Source of the DNA: Candidatus Binataceae bacterium
GTDB taxonomy: Bacteria > Desulfobacterota > Binatia > Binatales > Binataceae
Direction: 5' to 3'
Assembly (NCBI GenBank): GCA_035524375.1
Contig: DATKOZ010000047.1
Location: forward strand, 113,347-177,346
DNA: 64,000 nt
Shown: piece by piece, positions 10,683 to 22,712 of the stretch
Layout of the letters: each line of letters opens with the position of its first letter
How positions within the stretch are numbered: position 1 is the stretch's first letter
Notes under the pieces: model-generated
The model's input: only the letters and a program-made list of their open reading frames with translations
The model's database searches: none
What the model was told of the DNA's origin: nothing
Made by a program: the position numbers and the translations under genes

Positions 10683-11336
10683 CTAAACGCCGCGTTTATC
10701 GGCTCCCCAAATTTGCTTATGCAGTTGCAACTGCATCCGCGCGGGGATTCGATCTTCCAGAATCCATCCCGCCAGCTCTGCCGGTTCAAGCCTGCCGAAG
10801 ACCGGGCTTAGCAGCACCGCACCGACGCGATCTGCGAGACGGCGTGAGGCGATCGCCTCGCGCGCCCATTCGTAATCGGTACGGTCGGCAACGACGAACT
10901 TGATTTCATCGCGCGGGGTCAGATATTCGAGATTGCTCCACAGGTTGCGGTCGCATTCTCCGCTGCCGGGACATTTCAGATCCATGATCTTAATTACCCG
11001 CGGATCGAGCCGGCTCACGTCAATTGAGCCGGAGGTCTCGATCATCACGGCTTTTCCCGAATCGAGCAGCGATTGCATAAGGGGATAAACGCCCTCCTGC
11101 AGCAGCGGCTCTCCGCCGGTGATTTCGATCAGATCGCATCGATACTTCGCGATAATCTCGGCGACCTCGGCGGTGCGCATTCTGCGCCCTTCATAAAAGG
11201 CATACTCGGTGTCGCACCATTTGCAGCGCAGATTGCATCCGGTCAGCCGCACGAAGACGCATGGCCGCCCGGCATGGGTCGATTCACCCTGCAAGCTATA
11301 AAATATTTCGTTTATGTGAAGACGCTCAGAATCCAT
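10683..11336 (-). CDS. queE: 7-carboxy-7-deazaguanine synthase QueE (radical SAM)
   Basis: LTGCNLRCKWCDTEY radical-SAM cluster motif, plus IEITGGEPLLQ and the length (217 aa) typical of QueE. Confidence 0.85.
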   Translation of the reverse strand: MDSERLHINEIFYSLQGESTHAGRPCVFVRLTGCNLRCKWCDTEYAFYEGRRMRTAEVAEIIAKYRCDLIEITGGEPLLQEGVYPLMQSLLDSGKAVMIETSGSIDVSRLDPRVIKIMDLKCPGSGECDRNLWSNLEYLTPRDEIKFVVADRTDYEWAREAIASRRLADRVGAVLLSPVFGRLEPAELAGWILEDRIPARMQLQLHKQIWGADKRGV

Positions 11337-11388
11337 GCGAGCCGTGTTTGTGCTGCCGCCATTTAGACGCGCATCGATGCCTTCAATC

Positions 11389-11417
11389 TTTACATGCTAT
11401 CAGGGCGCCTATAGAAT
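11389..11417 (+). promoter_or_regulatory. sigma70-like promoter for dksA-like gene (TTTACA-17 bp-TAGAAT)
   Basis: TTTACAtgctatcagggcgcctaTAGAAT, 35 nt upstream of ATG 11452. Confidence 0.4.
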
Positions 11418-11451
11418 CGGAATCTCGGCTCAATGCCGGGTCATTCACCTG

Positions 11452-11808
11452 ATGAGGCAAAGAGACCTCAAGCTCTTCCGCAAATTGCTCGAAGGCCGCC
11501 GGCGCGACATTCTGGAGGAAGCGGAACGTGCCGTCGGCACGATGAACGGCGTCGAGGAGGCGTATGCCGACCCGACCGACCGCGCGTCGCTGGAATCCGA
11601 CCGCAACTTCCTGCTCCGGATGCGAGATCGCGAGCGCAAGCTGCTGGGCAAAATCGACGAGGCATTCACCCGCCTGGACGACGGTTCCTACGGCCTGTGC
11701 GAGGAATGCGGCGGCGACATCGGCGTCGAGCGGCTGAAGGCGCGACCGGTCACCACGCTCTGCATCGCCTGCAAATCCGCGCAGGAAGCGCGCGAACAGA
11801 AAACCTGA
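11452..11808 (+). CDS. DksA/TraR-family C4 zinc-finger transcription factor
   Basis: Coiled-coil N-part and C-terminal CEECGGDIGVERLKARPVTTLCIACK (C4 finger). Start moved to Met of MRQRDLK (track ORF 11335). Confidence 0.75.
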   Translation: MRQRDLKLFRKLLEGRRRDILEEAERAVGTMNGVEEAYADPTDRASLESDRNFLLRMRDRERKLLGKIDEAFTRLDDGSYGLCEECGGDIGVERLKARPVTTLCIACKSAQEAREQKT

Positions 11809-11837
11809 TCGCGGCCGGGCAAGGCAGTTCGAAAAAT

Positions 11838-12704
11838 ATGAAGGTCAAGAAAGCGGTCATTGTTGCGGCCGGGATGGGCACGCGGATGCTGCCGTCGTCG
11901 AAGGTCATCCCCAAGGAAATTCTGCCGGTGATCGATACGCCGGCAATTCAGGTCGTCGTGGAGGAAGCCGTCGCCTCCGGCATTCAGGAGATCATCATCG
12001 TGATCAGCCCCGGAAAGACGACCGTGGTCGATCACTTCATGCCGGTTGAGGCGCTGGAACGGCATCTCGAAGAGCGTGGAAAGCACGACATCCTGGAGTT
12101 GGTGCGCCGCAGCAATAAGCCGGCGATGATCACCGTCGCCGAGCAGCACAAGCCGCTGGGCCTCGGCCATGCGGTCCTGCAGGCGCGCGAGGCGGTCGGC
12201 GACGAACCGTTCGCGGTGATGCTCCCCGATGACATCTTTGATTGTCCGCGTCCGTGCCTTCGCCAATTAATCGATGCGGCGGAACAGATGGATGCCCCGG
12301 TTGTGGCATTGTGCAAGGTCGCGCGCAGCGAACTGTCAAAGTACGGCATCGTCGATGCGAAGCCGGCCGGTCCGCGGCTGCATGAACTGCGCTCGATGGT
12401 GGAAAAGCCAGCGCCGGAAAAAGCACCGAGCGATTTCGCGATCATGGGCCGCTACGTCCTGACTCCGGACATCTTCGCGCTGCTCGCCGAGGGCAAGCCG
12501 GGGACCGGCGAAGAGATTCAATTGACCGACGGCCTGATGGCGTTGGCGCAGCGGCGCAAGCTGTATGGATATGAATTCGAGGGCGTGCGCTATGACCTGG
12601 GCGATCGCGTTGGGTTCATCTCGGCGCAAATCGGTTTTGGGTTGAAACGGCCGGATTTGGCTGATAAGTTGCGGGCTTACCTGAAGTCGGTCCTCGCACA
12701 ATAA
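11838..12704 (+). CDS. galU: UTP-glucose-1-phosphate uridylyltransferase GalU
   Basis: KAVIVAAGMGTRMLPSSKVIPKEILPVIDTPAIQVVVEEA is the GalU N-terminal signature, with VEKP and a conserved C-terminus. The 135-aa N-extension in the track ORF (11433) is discarded. Confidence 0.9.
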   Translation: MKVKKAVIVAAGMGTRMLPSSKVIPKEILPVIDTPAIQVVVEEAVASGIQEIIIVISPGKTTVVDHFMPVEALERHLEERGKHDILELVRRSNKPAMITVAEQHKPLGLGHAVLQAREAVGDEPFAVMLPDDIFDCPRPCLRQLIDAAEQMDAPVVALCKVARSELSKYGIVDAKPAGPRLHELRSMVEKPAPEKAPSDFAIMGRYVLTPDIFALLAEGKPGTGEEIQLTDGLMALAQRRKLYGYEFEGVRYDLGDRVGFISAQIGFGLKRPDLADKLRAYLKSVLAQ

Positions 12705-12726
12705 GACCCGCATTGACGCCTTGGAT

Positions 12727-12802
12727 GGGGCAGTAGCTCAGTTGGGAGAGCACCACGTTCGCAACGTGGGGGTCGAGGGTTCAAATCCCTTCTGCTCCAC
12801 CA
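12727..12802 (+). tRNA. tRNA-Ala (anticodon CGC)
   Basis: Folded by hand: acceptor GGGGCAG/CTGCTCC with the G3:U70 Ala identity pair, D-stem GCTC/GAGC, anticodon stem CCACG/CGTGG, loop TTCGCAA (anticodon CGC), T-arm GAGGG-TTCAAAT-CCCTT, and 3' ACCA. Confidence 0.9.
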
Positions 12803-12837
12803 AACCCAAATCCAAGAGGGGCAAAGGGCTGCGCGAT

Positions 12838-14166
12838 TTGATCGGCGGCGCTACGGCGGTCAGCCTGGCGGGAGTGGTAGCCTCCGCGGCCACACCGCTG
12901 GTCAGCGTATCGCCGAATGCAGTAAATTTTGGCTCATCGACGGAGGGATCTCCGGCTCCGACTCAGAGCATTACGATTACGAATAATTCAGGTGGTACTA
13001 TGAATATATCCAAGATGACATTTGCGGGTGCGCTTGGTTTTGCGATCGCTTCTTCAACCTGCGGAACACCGATTGCCGACGCAGCGTCGTGCGTGGTCGG
13101 GCTCTCGTTCACGCCGCAGTCGATTTCCGCTTCCGGCACCACCATCAATGGCACGCTGACAATTGCCGACGATGTCGTTAGTAGCCCACAAAAGTTTGTT
13201 AATTTGATCGGGACAGGGACCGCGCCGGTATCGAACGCTATCGCCTCGTATGCCCCGACGCCGGTTACATTCGCGGCCGCGATGGGATACTCAGCACAAC
13301 AGAATCTCACCGTTACAAATACAAGCAGCAACCCATTGTATATGTCGAGCCTCACGCTGTCCGACCCGTCCGATTTCGGGATCGTGAACAACGGATGCCC
13401 GGTGACACCGAACAGCCTAGCGGCAAGTGGCAGTTGCACGATCGCGCTCGATTTCGCACCGCAGTCGAATGAGACGGTCGCGGGTAGCCTGATGATCGCC
13501 GACAATACCAGTTCCAGCCCGGAGACTGTCGCCCTGTCGGGCGCGACGCTTACCTGTCCGATCGGCCAACCCAAGGGTCCTACGCCTCCAATTGTGACTC
13601 CGAGGTTATTCTTCTCTGGTGGGGACACGCAACTTACTGTGACCTCGGTGGTGCCACCCGACCCCAATCTCATAGCGAGTAACGTGACACTTCTGCAGGT
13701 CGATTCGAACGGGAACAATCCGGTAGTGCTGGGGCAGATGTACGACGACGGGACGCATGGCGACGCAGTTGCGGGCGACGGCCAGTACACCGCACAGCCC
13801 ACCGTCAATATTTCTTCGGCTGGGAGGATATATCTCGCGGTGCGCACAAATTATTCGGGACCTCCGGGATGCCGGCAGTCGAATAACAACGAGCGCCCGA
13901 TTGACGTTACTCCGCCACAATCGCAATTCAATCGTGCCCAGTTCGACGCGGAAAACAATGCCCTAACAGCAGGGGAAAAATTCCTTCAAGATGACATCGC
14001 AGGCGGAAAAAGCACCGCGCAAGCGGCACAGGATTTGGTGAATTACATGAAGGCGAATTTTCCCGGAGTCGTTTCTGACGCGGCAGTTGCTGGGACCTTA
14101 AACGATCCCACCGGCGTCTCGGTAACATTCACCAGTGGACGGACGGGAGGCTTTCTTCTCGATTAG
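12838..14166 (+). CDS. Secreted protein with tandem Ig-like ASH/'choice-of-anchor D'-type repeats (start uncertain: TTG 12838)
   Basis: Two repeats of the pattern VNFGSS...TQSITITNNSGG...ISK..F.....F.I.SSTCG.......C.VGLSFTPQS...G.LTIADD..SSPQ.V.L.GTG. The track ORF start (12721) reads through the tRNA and is spurious. TTG at 12838 is in frame, follows AAGGG, and begins a hydrophobic leader. Confidence 0.5.
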   Translation: MIGGATAVSLAGVVASAATPLVSVSPNAVNFGSSTEGSPAPTQSITITNNSGGTMNISKMTFAGALGFAIASSTCGTPIADAASCVVGLSFTPQSISASGTTINGTLTIADDVVSSPQKFVNLIGTGTAPVSNAIASYAPTPVTFAAAMGYSAQQNLTVTNTSSNPLYMSSLTLSDPSDFGIVNNGCPVTPNSLAASGSCTIALDFAPQSNETVAGSLMIADNTSSSPETVALSGATLTCPIGQPKGPTPPIVTPRLFFSGGDTQLTVTSVVPPDPNLIASNVTLLQVDSNGNNPVVLGQMYDDGTHGDAVAGDGQYTAQPTVNISSAGRIYLAVRTNYSGPPGCRQSNNNERPIDVTPPQSQFNRAQFDAENNALTAGEKFLQDDIAGGKSTAQAAQDLVNYMKANFPGVVSDAAVAGTLNDPTGVSVTFTSGRTGGFLLD

Positions 14167-14248
14167 GCACCTGTGGAATATCGCTTCTGTGGTAGGCTCG
14201 CATTGTCTCAACGGGATTGTCAGCCGCGCAAATTCTGAGGAAAACGAT

Positions 14249-15475
14249 ATGAATGTTACAAAGGAGAAAATTGCCGCTTTTGTAAGCCTGATCGTAGTAG
14301 CTATCGTTCCATCATCTATATTCGCACAGGCGGTTACTACTTATACCACAAATTCCAAGAGTATCGTCTTAATGCCATACGTCGATGATTTCGGAATGTA
14401 CGATGCGGGCGGAAATCTGATTAATGACCTTCCAAAGGCGTGCGGCACCTCAGATCCCTTTCCAGTTGTCTACGCAAATGTAGAAGCCTTCAGAGGGATG
14501 GGCAACGATTACGGCGTGATAGGCATATCATCTCATGGATGGGTAAGGCCAGAGACCGGTCAGGTTGAAATTATGACCCGCGAACCAGTCCCACCGCTGG
14601 GCGCGCCTATGGACCAGAAAGATATTAATGATGTCCTCGATAAATACCTTGGTTCTCTTGAGCGTCCTCCAGAAGATAAGGACACTACCCCTTATTTCGC
14701 GATTACGCCGGCGTTTGTCTCTCATTACGCGTCGCCCTATGCGGTTAAGGTAGGTCCTAACAGTTACGGCTACGAACGCCTTAACTATGTGGCCGCATGT
14801 GAGTCCGATGCGAACCCGACGATGGCCGCAGCATTTGTCGGAGACGAAAGCATGGGCGCTTATTTCGGGTACACAGAGAAGGCTAAGGCTTGGCAGGAGG
14901 ATACAACCGCCTTTGACCTTTTTGGAGTCCTAACCAATTTCAAATTGACTGACGATCAGCGAACGACTTCGAAGGCATACGCTCAGGCTGGAACGGACGG
15001 CGGCTTTTCGTTGGATTCAGTTAGCGACCAGAACTTGGCGATCGGAGGCCCGATCGTGAACGGCGGGTTCGAGGACACGGACACCAACGGCAGCCACCTC
15101 GTCGGGTGGACACGGCACTTCGAGCCAAATGCGGGAGCGATGAAGGACGGCCACTTTTGTGGCGATGGTGATACGGTCTGTACGCCGGCAGCCGGCGACG
15201 AGGCCTCGAAGGCCACTCGAGATGAGGCAAAGACTGGAAAATATTCCGCAGAGCTAGGACGGTGGGAAAATTCAAAAGGGCCGCCCGGTACTGATATTTG
15301 CACCGACTCGGTCGATAAGCAGGAGTCGGCTGGAGATGACCAAATATATCAGGATGTTACATTAGGAAAACGCACAGCGAATGGTGGCCCCAAATCGTTC
15401 ACGCTTACTTTCGATTACATTCGTTCTCCACCCCAAAGTTTGACGCTTAGTCCATTGCTCGAGTTGGAATTGTAG
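14249..15475 (+). CDS. Secreted hypothetical protein (409 aa); possible clan-CD (caspase/gingipain-like) His...Cys arrangement
   Basis: ATG at 14249 follows GAGG. Signal peptide MNVTKEKIAAFVSLIVVAIVPSSIFAQA. Motifs VIGISSHGW and LNYVAACESD each follow a hydrophobic strand. GC content by eye is about 45-50%. Confidence 0.5.
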   Translation: MNVTKEKIAAFVSLIVVAIVPSSIFAQAVTTYTTNSKSIVLMPYVDDFGMYDAGGNLINDLPKACGTSDPFPVVYANVEAFRGMGNDYGVIGISSHGWVRPETGQVEIMTREPVPPLGAPMDQKDINDVLDKYLGSLERPPEDKDTTPYFAITPAFVSHYASPYAVKVGPNSYGYERLNYVAACESDANPTMAAAFVGDESMGAYFGYTEKAKAWQEDTTAFDLFGVLTNFKLTDDQRTTSKAYAQAGTDGGFSLDSVSDQNLAIGGPIVNGGFEDTDTNGSHLVGWTRHFEPNAGAMKDGHFCGDGDTVCTPAAGDEASKATRDEAKTGKYSAELGRWENSKGPPGTDICTDSVDKQESAGDDQIYQDVTLGKRTANGGPKSFTLTFDYIRSPPQSLTLSPLLELEL

Positions 15476-15633: not shown

Positions 15634-15954
15634 TCAAAATTCCCAGGGCAGGTCACGGCGGTTATCCTTGGCTTCGCGGATTTTGGCTTGGGCGTTTCGC
15701 AATTGGGCATCGAGCGGTTCGGTGTCCATCCGCGCAACAATCTGGCCCGCATCGACGGTGTCGCCTTCGTGGGCAAGGATCTCCGCGATTCGGCCCTGAT
15801 ATTTTGTCGCGATATCCACCTGCTTGGCTTCCAGCTGGCCGTTAGCGCCGGCGAAACCGGGAGGCAGCGCGGGCTTGTTCAGGATAAACCACGCAATCGC
15901 TCCACCGCCAACTACGACGATTATTAGCCCTAGGTAAACAAATTTCTTCGACAT
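15634..15954 (-). pseudogene. Truncated N-terminal fragment (106 aa) of an HlyD-family membrane-fusion protein
   Basis: MSKKFVYLGLIIVVVGGGAIAWFIL... (TM), then QLEAKQVDIATKYQGRIAEILAHEGDTVDAGQIVARMDTEPLDAQLRNAQAKIREAK (biotinyl/lipoyl-like hairpin and start of the coiled coil), then a stop. Full-length HlyD proteins are 350-450 aa. Confidence 0.5.
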
Positions 15955-16261: not shown

Positions 16262-16332
16262 GCGCGGGGCGCGTTTCGGCTCTTAGTCAACCCCAATGCA
16301 ACCGAATCGGCCCGATGCCAGCCTGCAAGCGG

Positions 16333-16455
16333 GTTGTGGTCCGCAAAAACGCTTCGCATCCGGTTGAAACCAAATAATTCTTGGGGATCTTGTCAAAATC
16401 CCCAAGAACTATGGAACGTTTAAGCCCATGCAAATTATTTTTGCGGACCACAACC
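16333..16455. repeat. 18-bp perfect inverted repeat GGTTGTGGTCCGCAAAAA...TTTTTGCGGACCACAACC flanking an internal 11-bp-arm palindrome (16378-16408 TTCTTGGGGAT-N9-ATCCCCAAGAA)
   Basis: Seen directly. A nested hairpin architecture of about 120 nt (MITE-like or structured RNA/regulatory site) in the leader of the efflux operon. Confidence 0.35.
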
Positions 16456-16689: not shown

Positions 16690-18273
16690 ATGCATTTTCA
16701 CCGCATACTTGAAAGTGTCGTGCTGACGACGGCTTTGGTAACGAGTGGCTGCCTGATCGGACCCAACTTCAAGCGGTCCGCAGCGCCGGTTGCCGCCAAA
16801 TGGTCGGAAACCGGCAGCCAGGGAGTGGATTCCGAACGTCGCGAGTATCGGGATTGGTGGACGTCGTTTAACGATCCGGTGCTGACGCATTTAACTCAGA
16901 TCGCCTACCTGCAGAATCTGACTTTATTGGCTGCCGGTGTCAGGGTCCTTGAGGCGAGGGCACAGCTTGGAGTTGCAATTGGCGAGTTCTACCCGCAACA
17001 ACAAACCGTAGGTGCATCTCTCAGCTACAATCGGATCCCGGATTCGTTGCCGTACAATATTATCAACAACACTTACTGGGCCGATCAATTCGGGGCGCAA
17101 GCGGCTTGGGAACTCGATGTGTGGGGTAAAATCCGCCGTGGCATCGAGTCCGCGGATGAATCATTTTTAGCTTCGGTCGCCGATTATGACGACGTACTCG
17201 TCACTATGACTGGTGATGTGGCAAGTACGTACGTGCAAATTCGCACTCTTCAGGACCAGATTGCCATCGCCAATCAGAATGTTGACCGCCAAAAGATCGC
17301 ATGCCAAATCGCCGAGGCAAAATTTCATGGCGGCACCGCGAGCAAGCGCGATGTATATCAGGCCGAGAATGTTCTGGGTTCCACCGAAGCTGCAATTCCT
17401 GCCCTCAATATTCAGCTGGCAGAAGCGAAGAACTCGCTGTCAGTGTTGCTCGGGGTGCCTCCCGGAATGCTCGATAAGTTACTGGCGGGGTCCAAGGGCA
17501 TCCCGACTGCGCCGGAGCAAATTGCCGCCGGCATTCCGTCAGATTTGCTCGTCCGGCGTCCCGATATCCGTCGCGCGGAACTGCAGGCGGCTGCACAATG
17601 CGCCCAGATCGGCTTCACCAAGGCGGACTTGTTGCCGGCCTTCAACCTGATCGGGAGCGTGGGAACCCTTTCCGGCACTGTAGGTACGTCGACGCTTGCC
17701 ACCGCCTTTTCGGCCAGCGCTCTGGTTTACAACGTCGGCCCATCGCTGCAGTGGAACATTCTGAATTATGGTCAGATAACCAATAACGTGCGCGTTCAGG
17801 ATGCGAAGTTCCAAGAGTTGCAGATTCAGTATCAGAATACCGTGCTCAAGGCGCAGCAGGAGGTCGAAAATGGCCTGGTTGTCTTTGTCGAGTCGCGCAA
17901 TCAGGCCAAATTTTTGACGGAGAGCGTCACAGCCGCAGAGGGTGCGCTCAGCATAGCAATGCTTCAATATCAGCAGGGTATTCTGGACTTCACCACCGTT
18001 CTGACCGCTGAACAGAATCTGTATCAGGCGCAAAACAGCCTGGCCATTGCGCAGGGAAATGTGCCGCAGGGGCTGATCGCAACATACCGGGCGTTGGGGG
18101 GAGGATGGCAGATTCGTATGGGCCATGATTTTGTTCCGCAAGAAACGCGTGACGAGATGTCCGATCGAACCAATTGGGGAACATTGCTGACGCCGAGCCT
18201 GATGAAGCCCAAAGCGCCGGGACTCCCCGGTCCAAAGGATTCATCGCCGGCGCCGGGATTGCCGGAATGGTGA
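16690..18273 (+). CDS. RND efflux outer-membrane factor lipoprotein (NodT/TolC family)
   Basis: Lipobox LVTSGC. Two OEP repeats, with conserved Arg/Asp-rich helices (RRPDIRRAELQAAAQ...). Confidence 0.85.
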   Translation: MHFHRILESVVLTTALVTSGCLIGPNFKRSAAPVAAKWSETGSQGVDSERREYRDWWTSFNDPVLTHLTQIAYLQNLTLLAAGVRVLEARAQLGVAIGEFYPQQQTVGASLSYNRIPDSLPYNIINNTYWADQFGAQAAWELDVWGKIRRGIESADESFLASVADYDDVLVTMTGDVASTYVQIRTLQDQIAIANQNVDRQKIACQIAEAKFHGGTASKRDVYQAENVLGSTEAAIPALNIQLAEAKNSLSVLLGVPPGMLDKLLAGSKGIPTAPEQIAAGIPSDLLVRRPDIRRAELQAAAQCAQIGFTKADLLPAFNLIGSVGTLSGTVGTSTLATAFSASALVYNVGPSLQWNILNYGQITNNVRVQDAKFQELQIQYQNTVLKAQQEVENGLVVFVESRNQAKFLTESVTAAEGALSIAMLQYQQGILDFTTVLTAEQNLYQAQNSLAIAQGNVPQGLIATYRALGGGWQIRMGHDFVPQETRDEMSDRTNWGTLLTPSLMKPKAPGLPGPKDSSPAPGLPEW

Positions 18274-19478
18274 GACGGGAAATGCACGCCGGATATCATT
18301 TTTCTTTCGCAAAAGCATTTAGCCGCATTCTTTTAATCCTGATCGCGGCCGAAGCGCTTGGAACAATCACCGGATGCCACGGCGGTGATGCCACGACCGA
18401 GATTCCTCCTCCGATCGTGACTGTGGCCCACCCCGTCACCCGCTCAGTCAACGACTATTTGGAATTTACCGGCAATCTCGCTTCGATCAATTCCGTTACG
18501 CTGGTCGCCCGCGTTGAAGGTTTCCTCGAGCAGATTCATTTTCAGGATGGAGCGCGGGTAAAAAAAGGCGACCTGCTATTCACGATTCAGCAAGATCAGT
18601 ACATAGCGCAGCTACAACAGGCGAAGGCCCAGGTTGAGGCTCAGAAGGCCGCACTTTGGCACGCGAAGACGGAGTTCGAGCGCTACACGAGACTGCTGAA
18701 GAAGGATGCGGCATCGCAGGTCGACGTTGACCACTGGCACTTTGAGCGGGACAGCTCCGCAGCCGCGCTAATTTCAGCGCAGGCACAGGTCGAAATTGCC
18801 AAACTCAACCTCGACTATACGGAGGTAAGGGCGCCCTTCGACGGCAGGATGGGGCGCCATCTGGTTGACCCGGGCAATTTGGTCGGAGCAATGGGGCAAC
18901 AGACGAAACTGGCCGAAATTGAACAACTCGACCCAATATACGCGTACGTTACGATCAATGAGCGCGAACTCCTGCGCATCATGAAACGAAGGAAGGACCA
19001 GGCGCGAGAAAAAGCTATCGAAGGGACAATTCCGGTGTTTTACGGCCTTGCGAGCGAAGATGGATTTCCACATGAGGGTCGTCTCGACTTCGCATCGCTG
19101 AACGTTACACCGACCACCGGAACTCTGCAGTTGCGCGCCATCTTTCCCAATCACGATCTGATCGTGATGCCGGGTCTTTTCGTGCGCGTGCGCATCCCCG
19201 TCCCGGAAGCTCGCGACGCCTTGCTCGTGCCAGGCGACGCAATCAGCTTCGATCAACAGGGCGAATACGTATTGGTCGCGAATGACAAAAATATCGTGGA
19301 GCGGCGCAGCGTCAAGACCGGGTTTCAAGTCGGAGATATGATGGTCGTCGACCAAGGGCTTAAGCCAGGCGACCGCGTGATCGTGGAAGGTCTGTTGCAG
19401 GCAATCATTGGCCGCCAAGTCAACCCACAGGCAAAAGACTCCGTTTCCCCCGACAAGACGCAAACCGCGGGCGGGTGA
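18267..19478 (+). CDS. RND efflux periplasmic adaptor (membrane-fusion protein, HlyD/AcrA family)
   Basis: ATG overlaps the OMF stop (ATGGTGA). Lipobox ITGC. Biotinyl-lipoyl hairpin (VEGFLEQIHFQDGARVKKGDLLFTIQ), coiled coil, beta-barrel and MP domains. Confidence 0.85.
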   Translation: MVRREMHAGYHFSFAKAFSRILLILIAAEALGTITGCHGGDATTEIPPPIVTVAHPVTRSVNDYLEFTGNLASINSVTLVARVEGFLEQIHFQDGARVKKGDLLFTIQQDQYIAQLQQAKAQVEAQKAALWHAKTEFERYTRLLKKDAASQVDVDHWHFERDSSAAALISAQAQVEIAKLNLDYTEVRAPFDGRMGRHLVDPGNLVGAMGQQTKLAEIEQLDPIYAYVTINERELLRIMKRRKDQAREKAIEGTIPVFYGLASEDGFPHEGRLDFASLNVTPTTGTLQLRAIFPNHDLIVMPGLFVRVRIPVPEARDALLVPGDAISFDQQGEYVLVANDKNIVERRSVKTGFQVGDMMVVDQGLKPGDRVIVEGLLQAIIGRQVNPQAKDSVSPDKTQTAGG

Positions 19479-19505
19479 AGCTGCTGGACCGGGAGAACGA
19501 CTAAC

Positions 19506-22500
19506 GTGTCTCGATTTTTCATCGAACGCCCGATCCTGTCGAATGTAATCGCGATAATCATCGTATTGCTCGGGCTGGTTTGCCTGCTGAACCTGCCTGT
19601 GGCGCAGTATCCTGAAATCGTCCCGCCAACGATACAGGTCCGGACAAACTATCCGGGCGCAAGTGCGGAGATCGTTGCTACGACCGTTGGCATACCGATC
19701 GAACAGGGAGTCAACGGTGTCGAGAACTCCCTCTATATGCAATCGACCAGCGGTAGCGACGGCACCTACACGCTCACCGTGACGTTTAGTGTTGGGACGG
19801 ACCTCGATGCCGCGATTGCACTGGTACAAAACGCCGTCAACGGCGCATTGTCCCAGTTGCCGGACGCGGTCCAAACTCAGGGCGTAACGGTCCAGAAGGT
19901 CAGCACCAATATCCTGCTCATTGGCAGCCTATATTCTGACCACAACCAATTCGACGAAACCTTCCTCAGCAACTATGCGATCATCAATCTGCAGAATCCG
20001 ATCGCCCGCTTGCCGGGAGTCGGACAAGTGCAGGTACTCGGCGCCGGACCGTACAGCATGCGCATTTGGCTCGACCCGATAAAGCTGAAAGCGTTCGGGC
20101 TGACGGTGCTCGACGTTCAACAGGCAATTCAGAATCAGAATGTTCAGGTGGCCGCGGGCCAGCTTGGAGGACCGCCAGTCGCGTCCGATCAGGTATTTCA
20201 GTTGACAGTGAATACGCTTGGACGCCTGACTGACGTATCGCAGTTCGAAAATATTATCCTGAAATCTCAGCCCCCCACCGATCGCACCAGCCAGGACACT
20301 CAGTCGGAAACCTACGCTCAAGCCGCCGCAATTGTCCGGATCAAAGATGTCGCCCGGGTTCAACTCAGCCAGGAGACATTTTCAAATTTTTCCGGCTTAA
20401 GCGGCCGGAAGGCCGCGCAACTCAATGTGTATACGCTGCCGGGTGCAAATGCCTTGAAGGTGTCGCAGGAGGTCTCGGAGCTGATGGCCAAGATGAGCCA
20501 AAAGTTCCCCGTCGGACTCAAATACGCCTCCCTTCTCGACACCTCCTTGTTTATTCGAGATTCGATCCACGGCGTGTATTCCGCGCTGATCGAGGCCGGA
20601 ATTCTGGTGTTGATAGTAATAATGTTGTTCCTGCAGAATTTTCGAGCAACGCTGGTTCCGGCGACTACCGTTCCCGTTACAATCATCGGCGCTTTCGCCG
20701 CGATGGCCCTGCTTGGCTTTACGGTCAATCTGATGACGCTCTTTGCCTTGATTCTGGCGATAGGGATCGTCGTGGATGACGCAATCGTCATTGTCGAAAA
20801 CGCCTCGCGCTACATCGAGAACGGCCTCTCTCCAAAGGATGCCGCCATCAAGGCGATGGAGGAGCTGACCGGGCCGATCCTCGGTATCACATTGGTGCTG
20901 ATATCGGTGTTTCTTCCGGCGTCGTTCCTTCCCGGCATTACCGGTCAGATGTTTCGGCAGTTCGCGCTCGTGATTGCGTCAACCGCGCTGATTAGTGCCC
21001 TAAATGCGCTCACTCTCAAGCCGACGCAATGCGCACTTTACTTGAAACCGCGTCCGAAGGACCAGCCAGTCAACCGGTTTTACCAAGAGTTCAACCGAAT
21101 TTACGGCATTATTGAGGATCGCTACGTCAGCTTGGTTGATTGGATGGCGCATCGACCCGGGCGGATGGTCGGGGTCTTCTTTTCAATCGTTGCTGTAGCT
21201 GGGCTCATGTTTGCATTACACCCGACCTCATTTCTTCCGCTGGAGGATCAAGGTTATTGCATTGTGTCCGCCAGGCTGCCTCCCGGCGCCGCGCAGCCGC
21301 GCGTGCAGGAAGTAGCAAGCGCCATCGACTCGGTACTTAAGGAAACTCCCGGAATCAAAGGTTGGGTGACCAGTGGCGGCGTTTCGGCGCTCGATTCGGC
21401 AAATTTATCCAACGCTGTGACTGTCTATGCCATGTACGAGGATTGGGGCAACCGCCAGGCCGGTCTTGATCAGGACCATATCGTTGCCGACCTTCGCCGG
21501 CGGTTGCAGTCAATCCGAAAGGCTGAATTCGACGTGCTTATTCCGCCGCCGATTCCGGGACTTGGCCAGGCTGGCGGATTCCAGATGATGATTGAGGATC
21601 GGACCGGAGTCGGCCTGGGCGAACTGCAGAAGGGAGTTGAGGAACTGATCCGAAAGGTCCGCGGAAACCCCGGCTTGCGTGGCGTTGCAACCACCTTTAG
21701 TGCAAATAGCCCTCAGCTTGAGCTGGACATCAATCGAACAATGGTCGAATCGCTCGGGGTAACGATTAACGATGTATTTCAGACCGTGCAGACCTATCTT
21801 GGATCTAGCTACATCAACCTTTTCAATAAATTCAATCAGAGTTTTCAGGTGCGCGTGCAGGCCGATGCCGATTATCGCAAGCAACTGGCAGACATCGGAA
21901 ATCTCTATGTCGCGAATCGGACCGGTCAGATGGTACCGCTGGGCGCCGTCCTGAGCATTCATCGAGTGCTCGGCTCGGAGCTTTTGACTCGATACAACAT
22001 GTATCCGGCCGCGATTGTAGTCGGTAATCCCGCTCCGGGTTACAGTTCGGGGCAAGCGCTCGAAACAATGGAGCGCGCCGCCAATACCGATTTACCGCTG
22101 GGAATGGGTTTCGATTGGACGGGACTGTCCTACCAGCAAAAGCTGATCGGAAATCAATCCTATTTCATATTCGCGCTTTCGATAACTTTGGTTTTCCTGG
22201 TCCTTGCAGCGCAATACGAGAGCTGGACGGCGCCTGCCGCGGTGGTGCTGACGGTGCCGATGGCGCTGGTCGGTGTCATTATCGCGCTCATCCTTCGCGG
22301 ATTTGCCACCGACCTTTATACGCAAATCGGACTGGTATTAATGATTGCGATGGCTGCAAAGAACGCGATCCTGGTGGTTGAATTTGCACGCGAGTTGCAA
22401 GCGGAAGGCATGACCGCGACTGAAGCGGCGGTCGAGGCGACGCGCCGGAGATTTCGCCCGATCGTGATGACGTCGATCGCATTCATTTTGGGCGTGGTTC

Positions 22501-22712
22501 CGCTGTTGACCGCAACCGGCGCAGGAGCGGCCAGTCAGCAGGCGCTGGGCACGGTAGTTTTCGGCGGCATGCTCGCCACGACGCTTATCGCCATTCCGTT
22601 TGTCCCCGTGTTCTATATCGTCATGGAAGGTTTCTCCGAGCGGCGAATGCGGCGAACTGGACGAACCCCGGCGCACGGCGAAGCCGTAGCAGTGAAAACG
22701 GACGGGGGATGA
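19506..22712 (+). CDS. RND efflux permease (HAE1/AcrB-MdtB type), copy 1
   Basis: 1068 aa and 12 TM. N-terminus MSRFFIERPILSNVIAIIIVLLG, plus conserved TM4 region (ALILAIGIVVDDAIVIVEN) and TM10 region. Confidence 0.95.
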   Translation: MSRFFIERPILSNVIAIIIVLLGLVCLLNLPVAQYPEIVPPTIQVRTNYPGASAEIVATTVGIPIEQGVNGVENSLYMQSTSGSDGTYTLTVTFSVGTDLDAAIALVQNAVNGALSQLPDAVQTQGVTVQKVSTNILLIGSLYSDHNQFDETFLSNYAIINLQNPIARLPGVGQVQVLGAGPYSMRIWLDPIKLKAFGLTVLDVQQAIQNQNVQVAAGQLGGPPVASDQVFQLTVNTLGRLTDVSQFENIILKSQPPTDRTSQDTQSETYAQAAAIVRIKDVARVQLSQETFSNFSGLSGRKAAQLNVYTLPGANALKVSQEVSELMAKMSQKFPVGLKYASLLDTSLFIRDSIHGVYSALIEAGILVLIVIMLFLQNFRATLVPATTVPVTIIGAFAAMALLGFTVNLMTLFALILAIGIVVDDAIVIVENASRYIENGLSPKDAAIKAMEELTGPILGITLVLISVFLPASFLPGITGQMFRQFALVIASTALISALNALTLKPTQCALYLKPRPKDQPVNRFYQEFNRIYGIIEDRYVSLVDWMAHRPGRMVGVFFSIVAVAGLMFALHPTSFLPLEDQGYCIVSARLPPGAAQPRVQEVASAIDSVLKETPGIKGWVTSGGVSALDSANLSNAVTVYAMYEDWGNRQAGLDQDHIVADLRRRLQSIRKAEFDVLIPPPIPGLGQAGGFQMMIEDRTGVGLGELQKGVEELIRKVRGNPGLRGVATTFSANSPQLELDINRTMVESLGVTINDVFQTVQTYLGSSYINLFNKFNQSFQVRVQADADYRKQLADIGNLYVANRTGQMVPLGAVLSIHRVLGSELLTRYNMYPAAIVVGNPAPGYSSGQALETMERAANTDLPLGMGFDWTGLSYQQKLIGNQSYFIFALSITLVFLVLAAQYESWTAPAAVVLTVPMALVGVIIALILRGFATDLYTQIGLVLMIAMAAKNAILVVEFARELQAEGMTATEAAVEATRRRFRPIVMTSIAFILGVVPLLTATGAGAASQQALGTVVFGGMLATTLIAIPFVPVFYIVMEGFSERRMRRTGRTPAHGEAVAVKTDGG

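Follow-up and report, generated by a model that had tools for sequence, protein, structure and literature searches.

Clan-CD cysteine peptidases include caspases, gingipains, separase and the CRISPR-associated CHAT proteases, and new lineages of the clan show its fold beyond cell-death and defence signalling. The catalytic His follows strand beta3 in the clan-CD topology and the catalytic Cys follows beta4, and CHAT proteases are established clan-CD enzymes. We compared the CHAT-domain proteases (PF12770) SAVED-CHAT of type III CRISPR (8TL0), TPR-CHAT/Csx29 of Craspase (7Y85, 7Y83), the anti-sigma factor DdvA (8ROT) and HetF; known CHAT proteases work in signalling and defence, in the cytoplasm or tethered to a membrane, and are linked to TPR, SAVED or anti-sigma modules. 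The CHAT protein Csx29 is an endopeptidase (PMC10028731), and HetF cleaves after Arg, its function being abolished by mutation of the catalytic Cys (PMC9457339). Here we describe a protein encoded in a 64,000-nucleotide stretch of a Candidatus Binataceae contig (DATKOZ010000047.1, positions 113,347 to 177,346; referred to as the window) that carries a His...Cys pair arranged as in these enzymes. We regard it as quite probable that this protein is exported by the Sec pathway, that its N-terminal domain of ~235 residues is a clan-CD domain of a rare and uncurated family, that it has been split from a partner and that it is truncated in the window. Unlike the CHAT proteases, the family to which it belongs combines a signal peptide with Ig-like, choice-of-anchor and jelly-roll domains.

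The open reading frame (ORF) of the target lies on the forward strand at 14249..15475. Its 1227 nt consist of 408 codons and a stop, so that the product has 408 amino acids (aa), one fewer than was given in an earlier note on this DNA, and it is identical to the NCBI hypothetical protein VMU16_10825 of a Candidatus Binataceae metagenome-assembled genome (MAG). A Shine-Dalgarno-like GAGGA stands 8 nt 5' of the ATG. A longer ORF of 446 aa from a GTG at 14135 was rejected, since alignments with full-length relatives start at the ATG of 14249, where the signal peptide begins. This peptide (aa 1-27, 14249..14329, forward strand), as read by eye, has the sequence MNVTKEKIAAFVSLIVVAIVPSSIFAQA followed by V; its n-region is charged, its hydrophobic core is 13 residues long, and cleavage is predicted after an AQA motif. 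The Sec-type reading, already made in the earlier note, is supported by equivalent leaders in five close standalone relatives (P0004, P0005, P0006, P0008 and P0009) that end in AQQ, AQT or AQP, and the target is accordingly likely, from its sequence, to be exported via Sec. The predicted catalytic His96 (codon CAT, 14534..14536, forward strand) lies in the S-H-G of GVIGISSHGW, and the predicted nucleophile Cys184 (codon TGT, 14798..14800, forward strand) lies 88 residues further on in the A-A-C of LNYVAACESD, as had been noticed from the letters of the DNA. Scans for promoters and terminators around the locus gave background level only.

The conservation of this pair was assessed with homologue searches of increasing depth. 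A word-indexed search covering 5.8 billion clusters returned the target itself and P0002, a 43%-identical Binataceae protein of 535 aa with both His and Cys; when repeated with a 28-sequence profile, it returned nothing beyond the target itself. Likewise, a profile search of genome contigs with a narrow alignment recovered the contig of P0002 alone. HMMER was then run exhaustively against 1.84 billion representatives with a profile of aa 28-268 of the target and P0002, and it found 119 proteins at E<=1e-3, 18 of them at E<=1e-10 (the 119 are clusters at 50% identity). Nearly the whole domain is spanned by 81 of these 119, from which a local MAFFT alignment was built. His96 and Cys184 were each present in all 81 sequences and Gly97 in 79, which argues that the dyad is not a chance co-occurrence, and the dyad was also invariant or nearly so in the alignments A3, A4 and A5. 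Further conserved positions of the family are P43, Y88, T110, P154, F156, A195, F196, G201 and G207, and the Cys is followed by the motif C-x-S-x-x-N-x-T-M-A-x-A-F...G-A-x-x-Y-x-G, which is found in A3-A5 as well. At the twelve positions conserved in at least 80% of the family, the target departs only once (G201S).

The earlier note had remarked that the His-Cys spacing is longer than in the canonical families, and this holds throughout the family, where it ranges from 63 to 116 residues with a median of 74, compared with 33 in the gingipain RgpB (His211/Cys244). The long insert between the dyad residues of the target (aa 97-183; 14537..14797, forward strand) is predicted to form a beta-hairpin, a helix, two strands and a helix, and it contains the family-conserved motifs T110-x-E112, D125 and I-T-P154-x-F156. 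All 20 members that were looked up come from metagenomic assemblies or MAGs, and the few that are named are called "hypothetical protein", "choice-of-anchor X domain-containing protein" or "LRR protein"; four of them could be placed, in MAGs of Binataceae, Terriglobales and Pyrinomonadaceae. The hosts of the placed members are thus Binataceae and Acidobacteriota MAGs, whereas those of gingipains are Bacteroidota.

A model of the domain was built with AlphaFold (AF2) on the 81-sequence alignment A5, in which the numbering is that of the protein minus 27. The predicted template-modelling score (pTM) was 0.74, and the predicted local distance difference test (pLDDT) was about 85-97 over most of aa 28-268. 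In the model, beta1 (11-15) is followed by helices, beta2 (41-45), a helix and beta3 (63-67), with His at 69; the insert, with the hairpin, helix, two strands and helix given above, leads to beta4 (151-155), with Cys at 157; a helix, beta5 (177-181), two helices and beta6 (226-228) complete the domain. Both dyad residues therefore come after a hydrophobic strand, as had been supposed from the sequence, and the order of strands is that of clan CD. When the model was compared with the PDB using Foldseek, the top matches were CHAT proteins, caspase-7 and caspase-6, the TPR-CHAT of Craspase, separase and RgpB. Three features of MEROPS clan CD are seen here: an alpha/beta/alpha sandwich in the predicted model, His before Cys at the C-terminal ends of strands, with Gly after the His and a small residue before the Cys, and conservation of the dyad among homologues. 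We thus assign aa ~35-268 (14351..15052, forward strand) to a predicted caspase/gingipain/CHAT-like alpha/beta domain, and the proposal of a clan-CD peptidase, made from raw sequence, proved right at the level of the clan by dyad invariance and predicted fold.

At the level of curated families the picture was different for the target and for its relatives. Neither Pfam nor NCBIfam models, nor the PDB, gave a match of the target to caspases and metacaspases (C14), legumain (C13), clostripain (C11) or C80, and no model of the families C11, C13, C14, C25 or C80, to which the earlier note had pointed, matched it in the Pfam and NCBIfam scans. The target gave no match to Pfam CHAT at E<=1 with the full protein or at E<=10 with the domain. 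However, when 28 domain sequences of the family were scanned against Pfam at a permissive threshold, 8 matched CHAT (best E 2.8e-6) and 3 relatives, the target not among them, weakly matched Peptidase_C25 (PF01364; best E 0.005). The best of the relatives seen, P0018, reached 23.7 bits with CHAT (E 3.7e-5) against a gathering threshold of 24 bits, in a match spanning residues 321-482 that includes His370 and Cys441; a sequence search of the PDB with P0018 found no clan-CD match. The gingipains RgpB and Kgp (MEROPS C25) show no threshold-level sequence match to the family, in which no gingipain-like type IX secretion C-terminal domain was detected. Metacaspases and caspases, legumain and GPI8 (C13), separase (C50) and clostripain show no sequence-level match and differ from the family in domain context and by the large insert that separates its His from its Cys. 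We therefore describe the family as a clan-CD lineage that is not yet curated, closest to CHAT and C25 and a member of neither.

Several results weigh against the assignment of the target. It has no threshold match among the Pfam or NCBIfam peptidase families, and PDB searches using phmmer with the protein or using the family profile found no match. Aligned with human caspase-3 in hhalign, the family gave a non-significant probability of 0.2, over the S-H-G segment alone. The evidence for the fold is a prediction, in which some stretches of the His-Cys insert have a lower pLDDT of about 60-75 and from which we infer the juxtaposition of His96 and Cys184 by topology alone. In addition, the truncated C-terminal jelly-roll domain described below may block folding or secretion, so that the window copy may be inactive.

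By analogy with clan CD, the thiolate of Cys184 would be the nucleophile, with His96 serving as general base and acid, and a peptide bond would be cleaved after a P1 residue held in a pocket beside the dyad. The family would most likely be a secreted or periplasmic cysteine endopeptidase with a dyad like that of CHAT proteases and gingipains. We speculate that the acidic residues D52, E112, D125 and D250 could form a pocket for a basic P1 residue, as in gingipains, metacaspases and HetF. A rare family that has so far been labelled only "hypothetical" can be given a predicted fold and a candidate active site, and it could serve as the basis for a curated model and a MEROPS family.

The gene directly upstream of the target (12838..14166, forward strand; the gene caller starts it at 13000) was also assessed, given that the earlier note had paired the target with an ASH-repeat protein. 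The gene is 5'-truncated, and its product, which has no signal peptide, contains Ig-like repeats of the choice-of-anchor D/ASH type, a motif of choice-of-anchor X and, at the C-terminus, an alpha/beta module. This product scored 81.3 bits with NCBIfam choice_anch_D (NF012200; cut-off 45) and 35 bits with choice_anch_X (NF041940; cut-off 25), and it matched Pfam ASH and Cep192_D4 above cut-off. In single-chain relatives, the segment encoded at 13609..14157 (forward strand) is fused N-terminal to the His/Cys domain, as found with BLASTP, tblastn and phmmer: the last ~180 residues of the partner align with the single-chain P0007 (BLASTP E 2e-17); in a tblastn search of the window, residues 41-213 of P0007 fall at 13609-14157 and residues 254-561 at 14345-15418; and phmmer with the last 135 aa of the partner recovered 15 single-chain members, with the match just before the His/Cys domain where its position is known. 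The usual architecture of the family is a choice-of-anchor X region (choice-of-anchor X is present in 25 of 65 members), a small alpha/beta module, the His/Cys domain and the jelly-roll domain.

The two-gene form, in contrast to this fused one, occurs at five loci: the window, L001 (P0002), L002/L003 (P0004), L006 (P0005) and L007 (P0008). The two genes overlap by 4 nt at three of the five, and the partner at L002/L003 is 44% identical to that of the window. A signal peptide of their own was seen in the five standalone downstream proteins inspected; P0002, whose real start is uncertain, has a longer called N-terminus. Because the pair recurs at five loci and is fused in other lineages, the ASH/choice-of-anchor gene is, on this comparative evidence, a genuine partner, and the arrangement reads as a conserved gene fission, or as a fusion when read in reverse. 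A simple frameshift or a sequencing split of one gene was rejected, since the second gene carries a signal peptide and a ribosome-binding site of its own and this division is found at five loci. In Binataceae and some relatives, where two neighbouring genes replace the single one, the system would comprise a first gene for a secreted ASH/choice-of-anchor D and X protein ending in the alpha/beta module, and a second for a His/Cys-plus-jelly-roll protein with its own signal peptide. This conserved fission offers a natural experiment on the N-terminal region and the catalytic domain. A literature search on choice-of-anchor found nothing on this domain.

Three observations were made at the other two-gene loci. 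At L006 (4100-4326), the intact 747-aa partner carries at its C-terminus a Lys/Arg-rich low-complexity tail (KGGASKRKTKEGKTFHTQVKEANHAGRNAKPTPPR...), which is the counterpart of the linker between domains in single-chain relatives, is absent from the window copy and might be a processing site. Directly 3' of the same intact pair (L006, 6420-10726) are genes for a T2SSE ATPase, T2SSF, a T2SSG pseudopilin and further N_methyl proteins, and these type II secretion or type IV pilus-like genes are a possible dedicated export route for the pair. At L007 (2519-7300), P0008 is followed 3' by a cluster of T5orf172, an M78 peptidase, Multi_ubiq and ThiF, which resembles a ubiquitin-like conjugation or defence-type island.

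Both members of the pair are incomplete in the window. Residues 269-390 of the target (15053..15418, forward strand) are the first half of a C-terminal jelly-roll domain (NGGFED...GWT...IYQDV...TFDY) that aligns with full-length relatives. Every relative aligns with the window only to 15418 (...TFDY), beyond which translation reads through a non-homologous 18-codon tail, IRSPPQSLTLSPLLELEL, to the stop (15419..15475, forward strand). The domain in relatives reads NGxFE..GW ... FGVHxDGWGDxTxxYVDNVxIxC, with weak sub-threshold matches to InhA-like_MAM, CBM_4_9, choice-of-anchor J and NTTRR-F1; the conserved end motif FGVHxDGWGDxTxxYVDNVxIxC is absent from the target, and the remaining C-terminal 86-100 residues of most relatives (more in P0006 and P0009) were not found in any frame of the window. 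On the other side, a tRNA-Ala(CGC) gene with an encoded CCA end (12727..12802, forward strand; ARAGORN; Rfam tRNA, 68.6 bits) marks the 5' break, homology to the partner beginning about 40 nt past it. There the window partner begins inside a repeat, where GGATAVSLAG aligns with the end of the upstream repeat in the paralogous partner, and the signal peptide and repeats of the complete 747-aa partner at L006 are missing; the mechanical ORF 12721-14166 reads through the tRNA gene and yields an 'AQLGEH...GSNPF' pseudo-peptide.

Convergent with the target, on the reverse strand at 15634..15954, is a 106-aa N-terminal HlyD/membrane-fusion fragment whose 3' end is cut; it consists of a transmembrane helix and the start of a biotin-lipoyl/HlyD barrel-sandwich domain, with sub-threshold matches to Biotin_lipoyl and HlyD_D23. 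The loss of both 3' ends would fit one deletion between the convergent genes. The GC content is 49% at 14000-14499, compared with about 57-63% in the preceding 2.5 kb, and is about 52-57% through the 4.5 kb after 14499, a pattern that fits a separate history for the DNA past the tRNA gene. A chimeric contig is unlikely, because the same truncated arrangement is present in one ENA and one Logan assembly.

These truncations bear on the alternative that survives best, namely that the window copy is a non-functional pseudogene in a scarred region beside the tRNA gene, a reading to which we give a little less than an even chance and which would leave the family assignment unaffected. It is favoured by the lost C-terminal segment and end motif, by low pLDDT over aa 269-408, by the incomplete partner, the HlyD fragment next door and the dip in GC, and by two complete paralogues annotated in the same MAG (VMU16_01450 and VMU16_03840). 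However, nothing is missing from the signal peptide, the Shine-Dalgarno-like motif or the catalytic domain, the frame has no internal stops or frameshifts, and nearly all family-conserved positions are kept; clan-CD catalytic domains can also act without accessory domains. Because the end of the jelly-roll domain (about 90-100 residues) and the 5' part of the partner, with its signal peptide, have been lost, the window copy is probably a decaying paralogue, and it is plausible that it has reduced or no function after losing half of its C-terminal domain and a functional partner. The intact paralogues are thus better suited to biochemical work, given the truncation of this copy.

Within the preferred reading of a secreted clan-CD endopeptidase with a genuine partner, an extension that we consider unlikely, with perhaps one chance in several, is that the two genes encode a split zymogen or two-component protease. 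The C-terminal alpha/beta module and linker of the partner might then serve in trans as prodomain, inhibitor, chaperone or docking site, and the 4-nt overlaps would balance the two products. If this were true, the pair would represent a new MEROPS-level family of clan CD with an unusual trans-regulated activation, with export possibly occurring via the type II secretion-like genes beside one paralogous pair.

Rather less likely again is that the domain is a transpeptidase, a ligase or a single-turnover autoprocessing module that acts on the partner or on itself. Such modules are known within the clan, as in PorU (the C25-like type IX secretion sortase), the GPI8 transamidase, asparaginyl ligases and the MARTX cysteine protease domain. 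However, the domain shows no specific similarity to PorU, GPI8, the ligases or MARTX apart from the fold that they have in common, the highest scores are those of CHAT and gingipain endopeptidases, and a sorting-signal-like motif was not found by eye in the C-terminus of the partner. A chance resemblance of the His...Cys pair, in another fold or in a dead caspase-like scaffold such as Raptor or c-FLIP, is very improbable: although the target lacks a curated family match, the His-Cys spacing is unusually long and AF2 on a two-sequence alignment gave no usable model (pLDDT 28.7), dyad invariance and the fold matches essentially exclude it.

Beyond the HlyD fragment, a 730-bp non-coding gap upstream of an outer-membrane factor gene contains a nested palindrome of 124 bp (16332-16455), single-copy in the window, in which 37-nt imperfect inverted arms (78% complementary, the outer 18 nt matching perfectly) enclose a 19-nt hairpin; it could be a remnant resembling a miniature inverted-repeat transposable element (MITE) or a regulatory hairpin. 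The gap is followed by a complete-looking resistance-nodulation-division (RND) efflux operon (16690-22712, forward strand), which encodes the 527-aa outer-membrane factor (Pfam OEP, from the L004 annotation), a membrane-fusion protein of about 398-434 aa and a 1068-aa RND pump. On the other side of the locus, housekeeping genes precede the tRNA gene at 10683-12704: a QueE-like radical-SAM gene on the reverse strand, and a DksA/TraR zinc-finger gene and a GalU-type NTP-transferase gene on the forward strand, with Pfam labels likewise taken from the L004 annotation.
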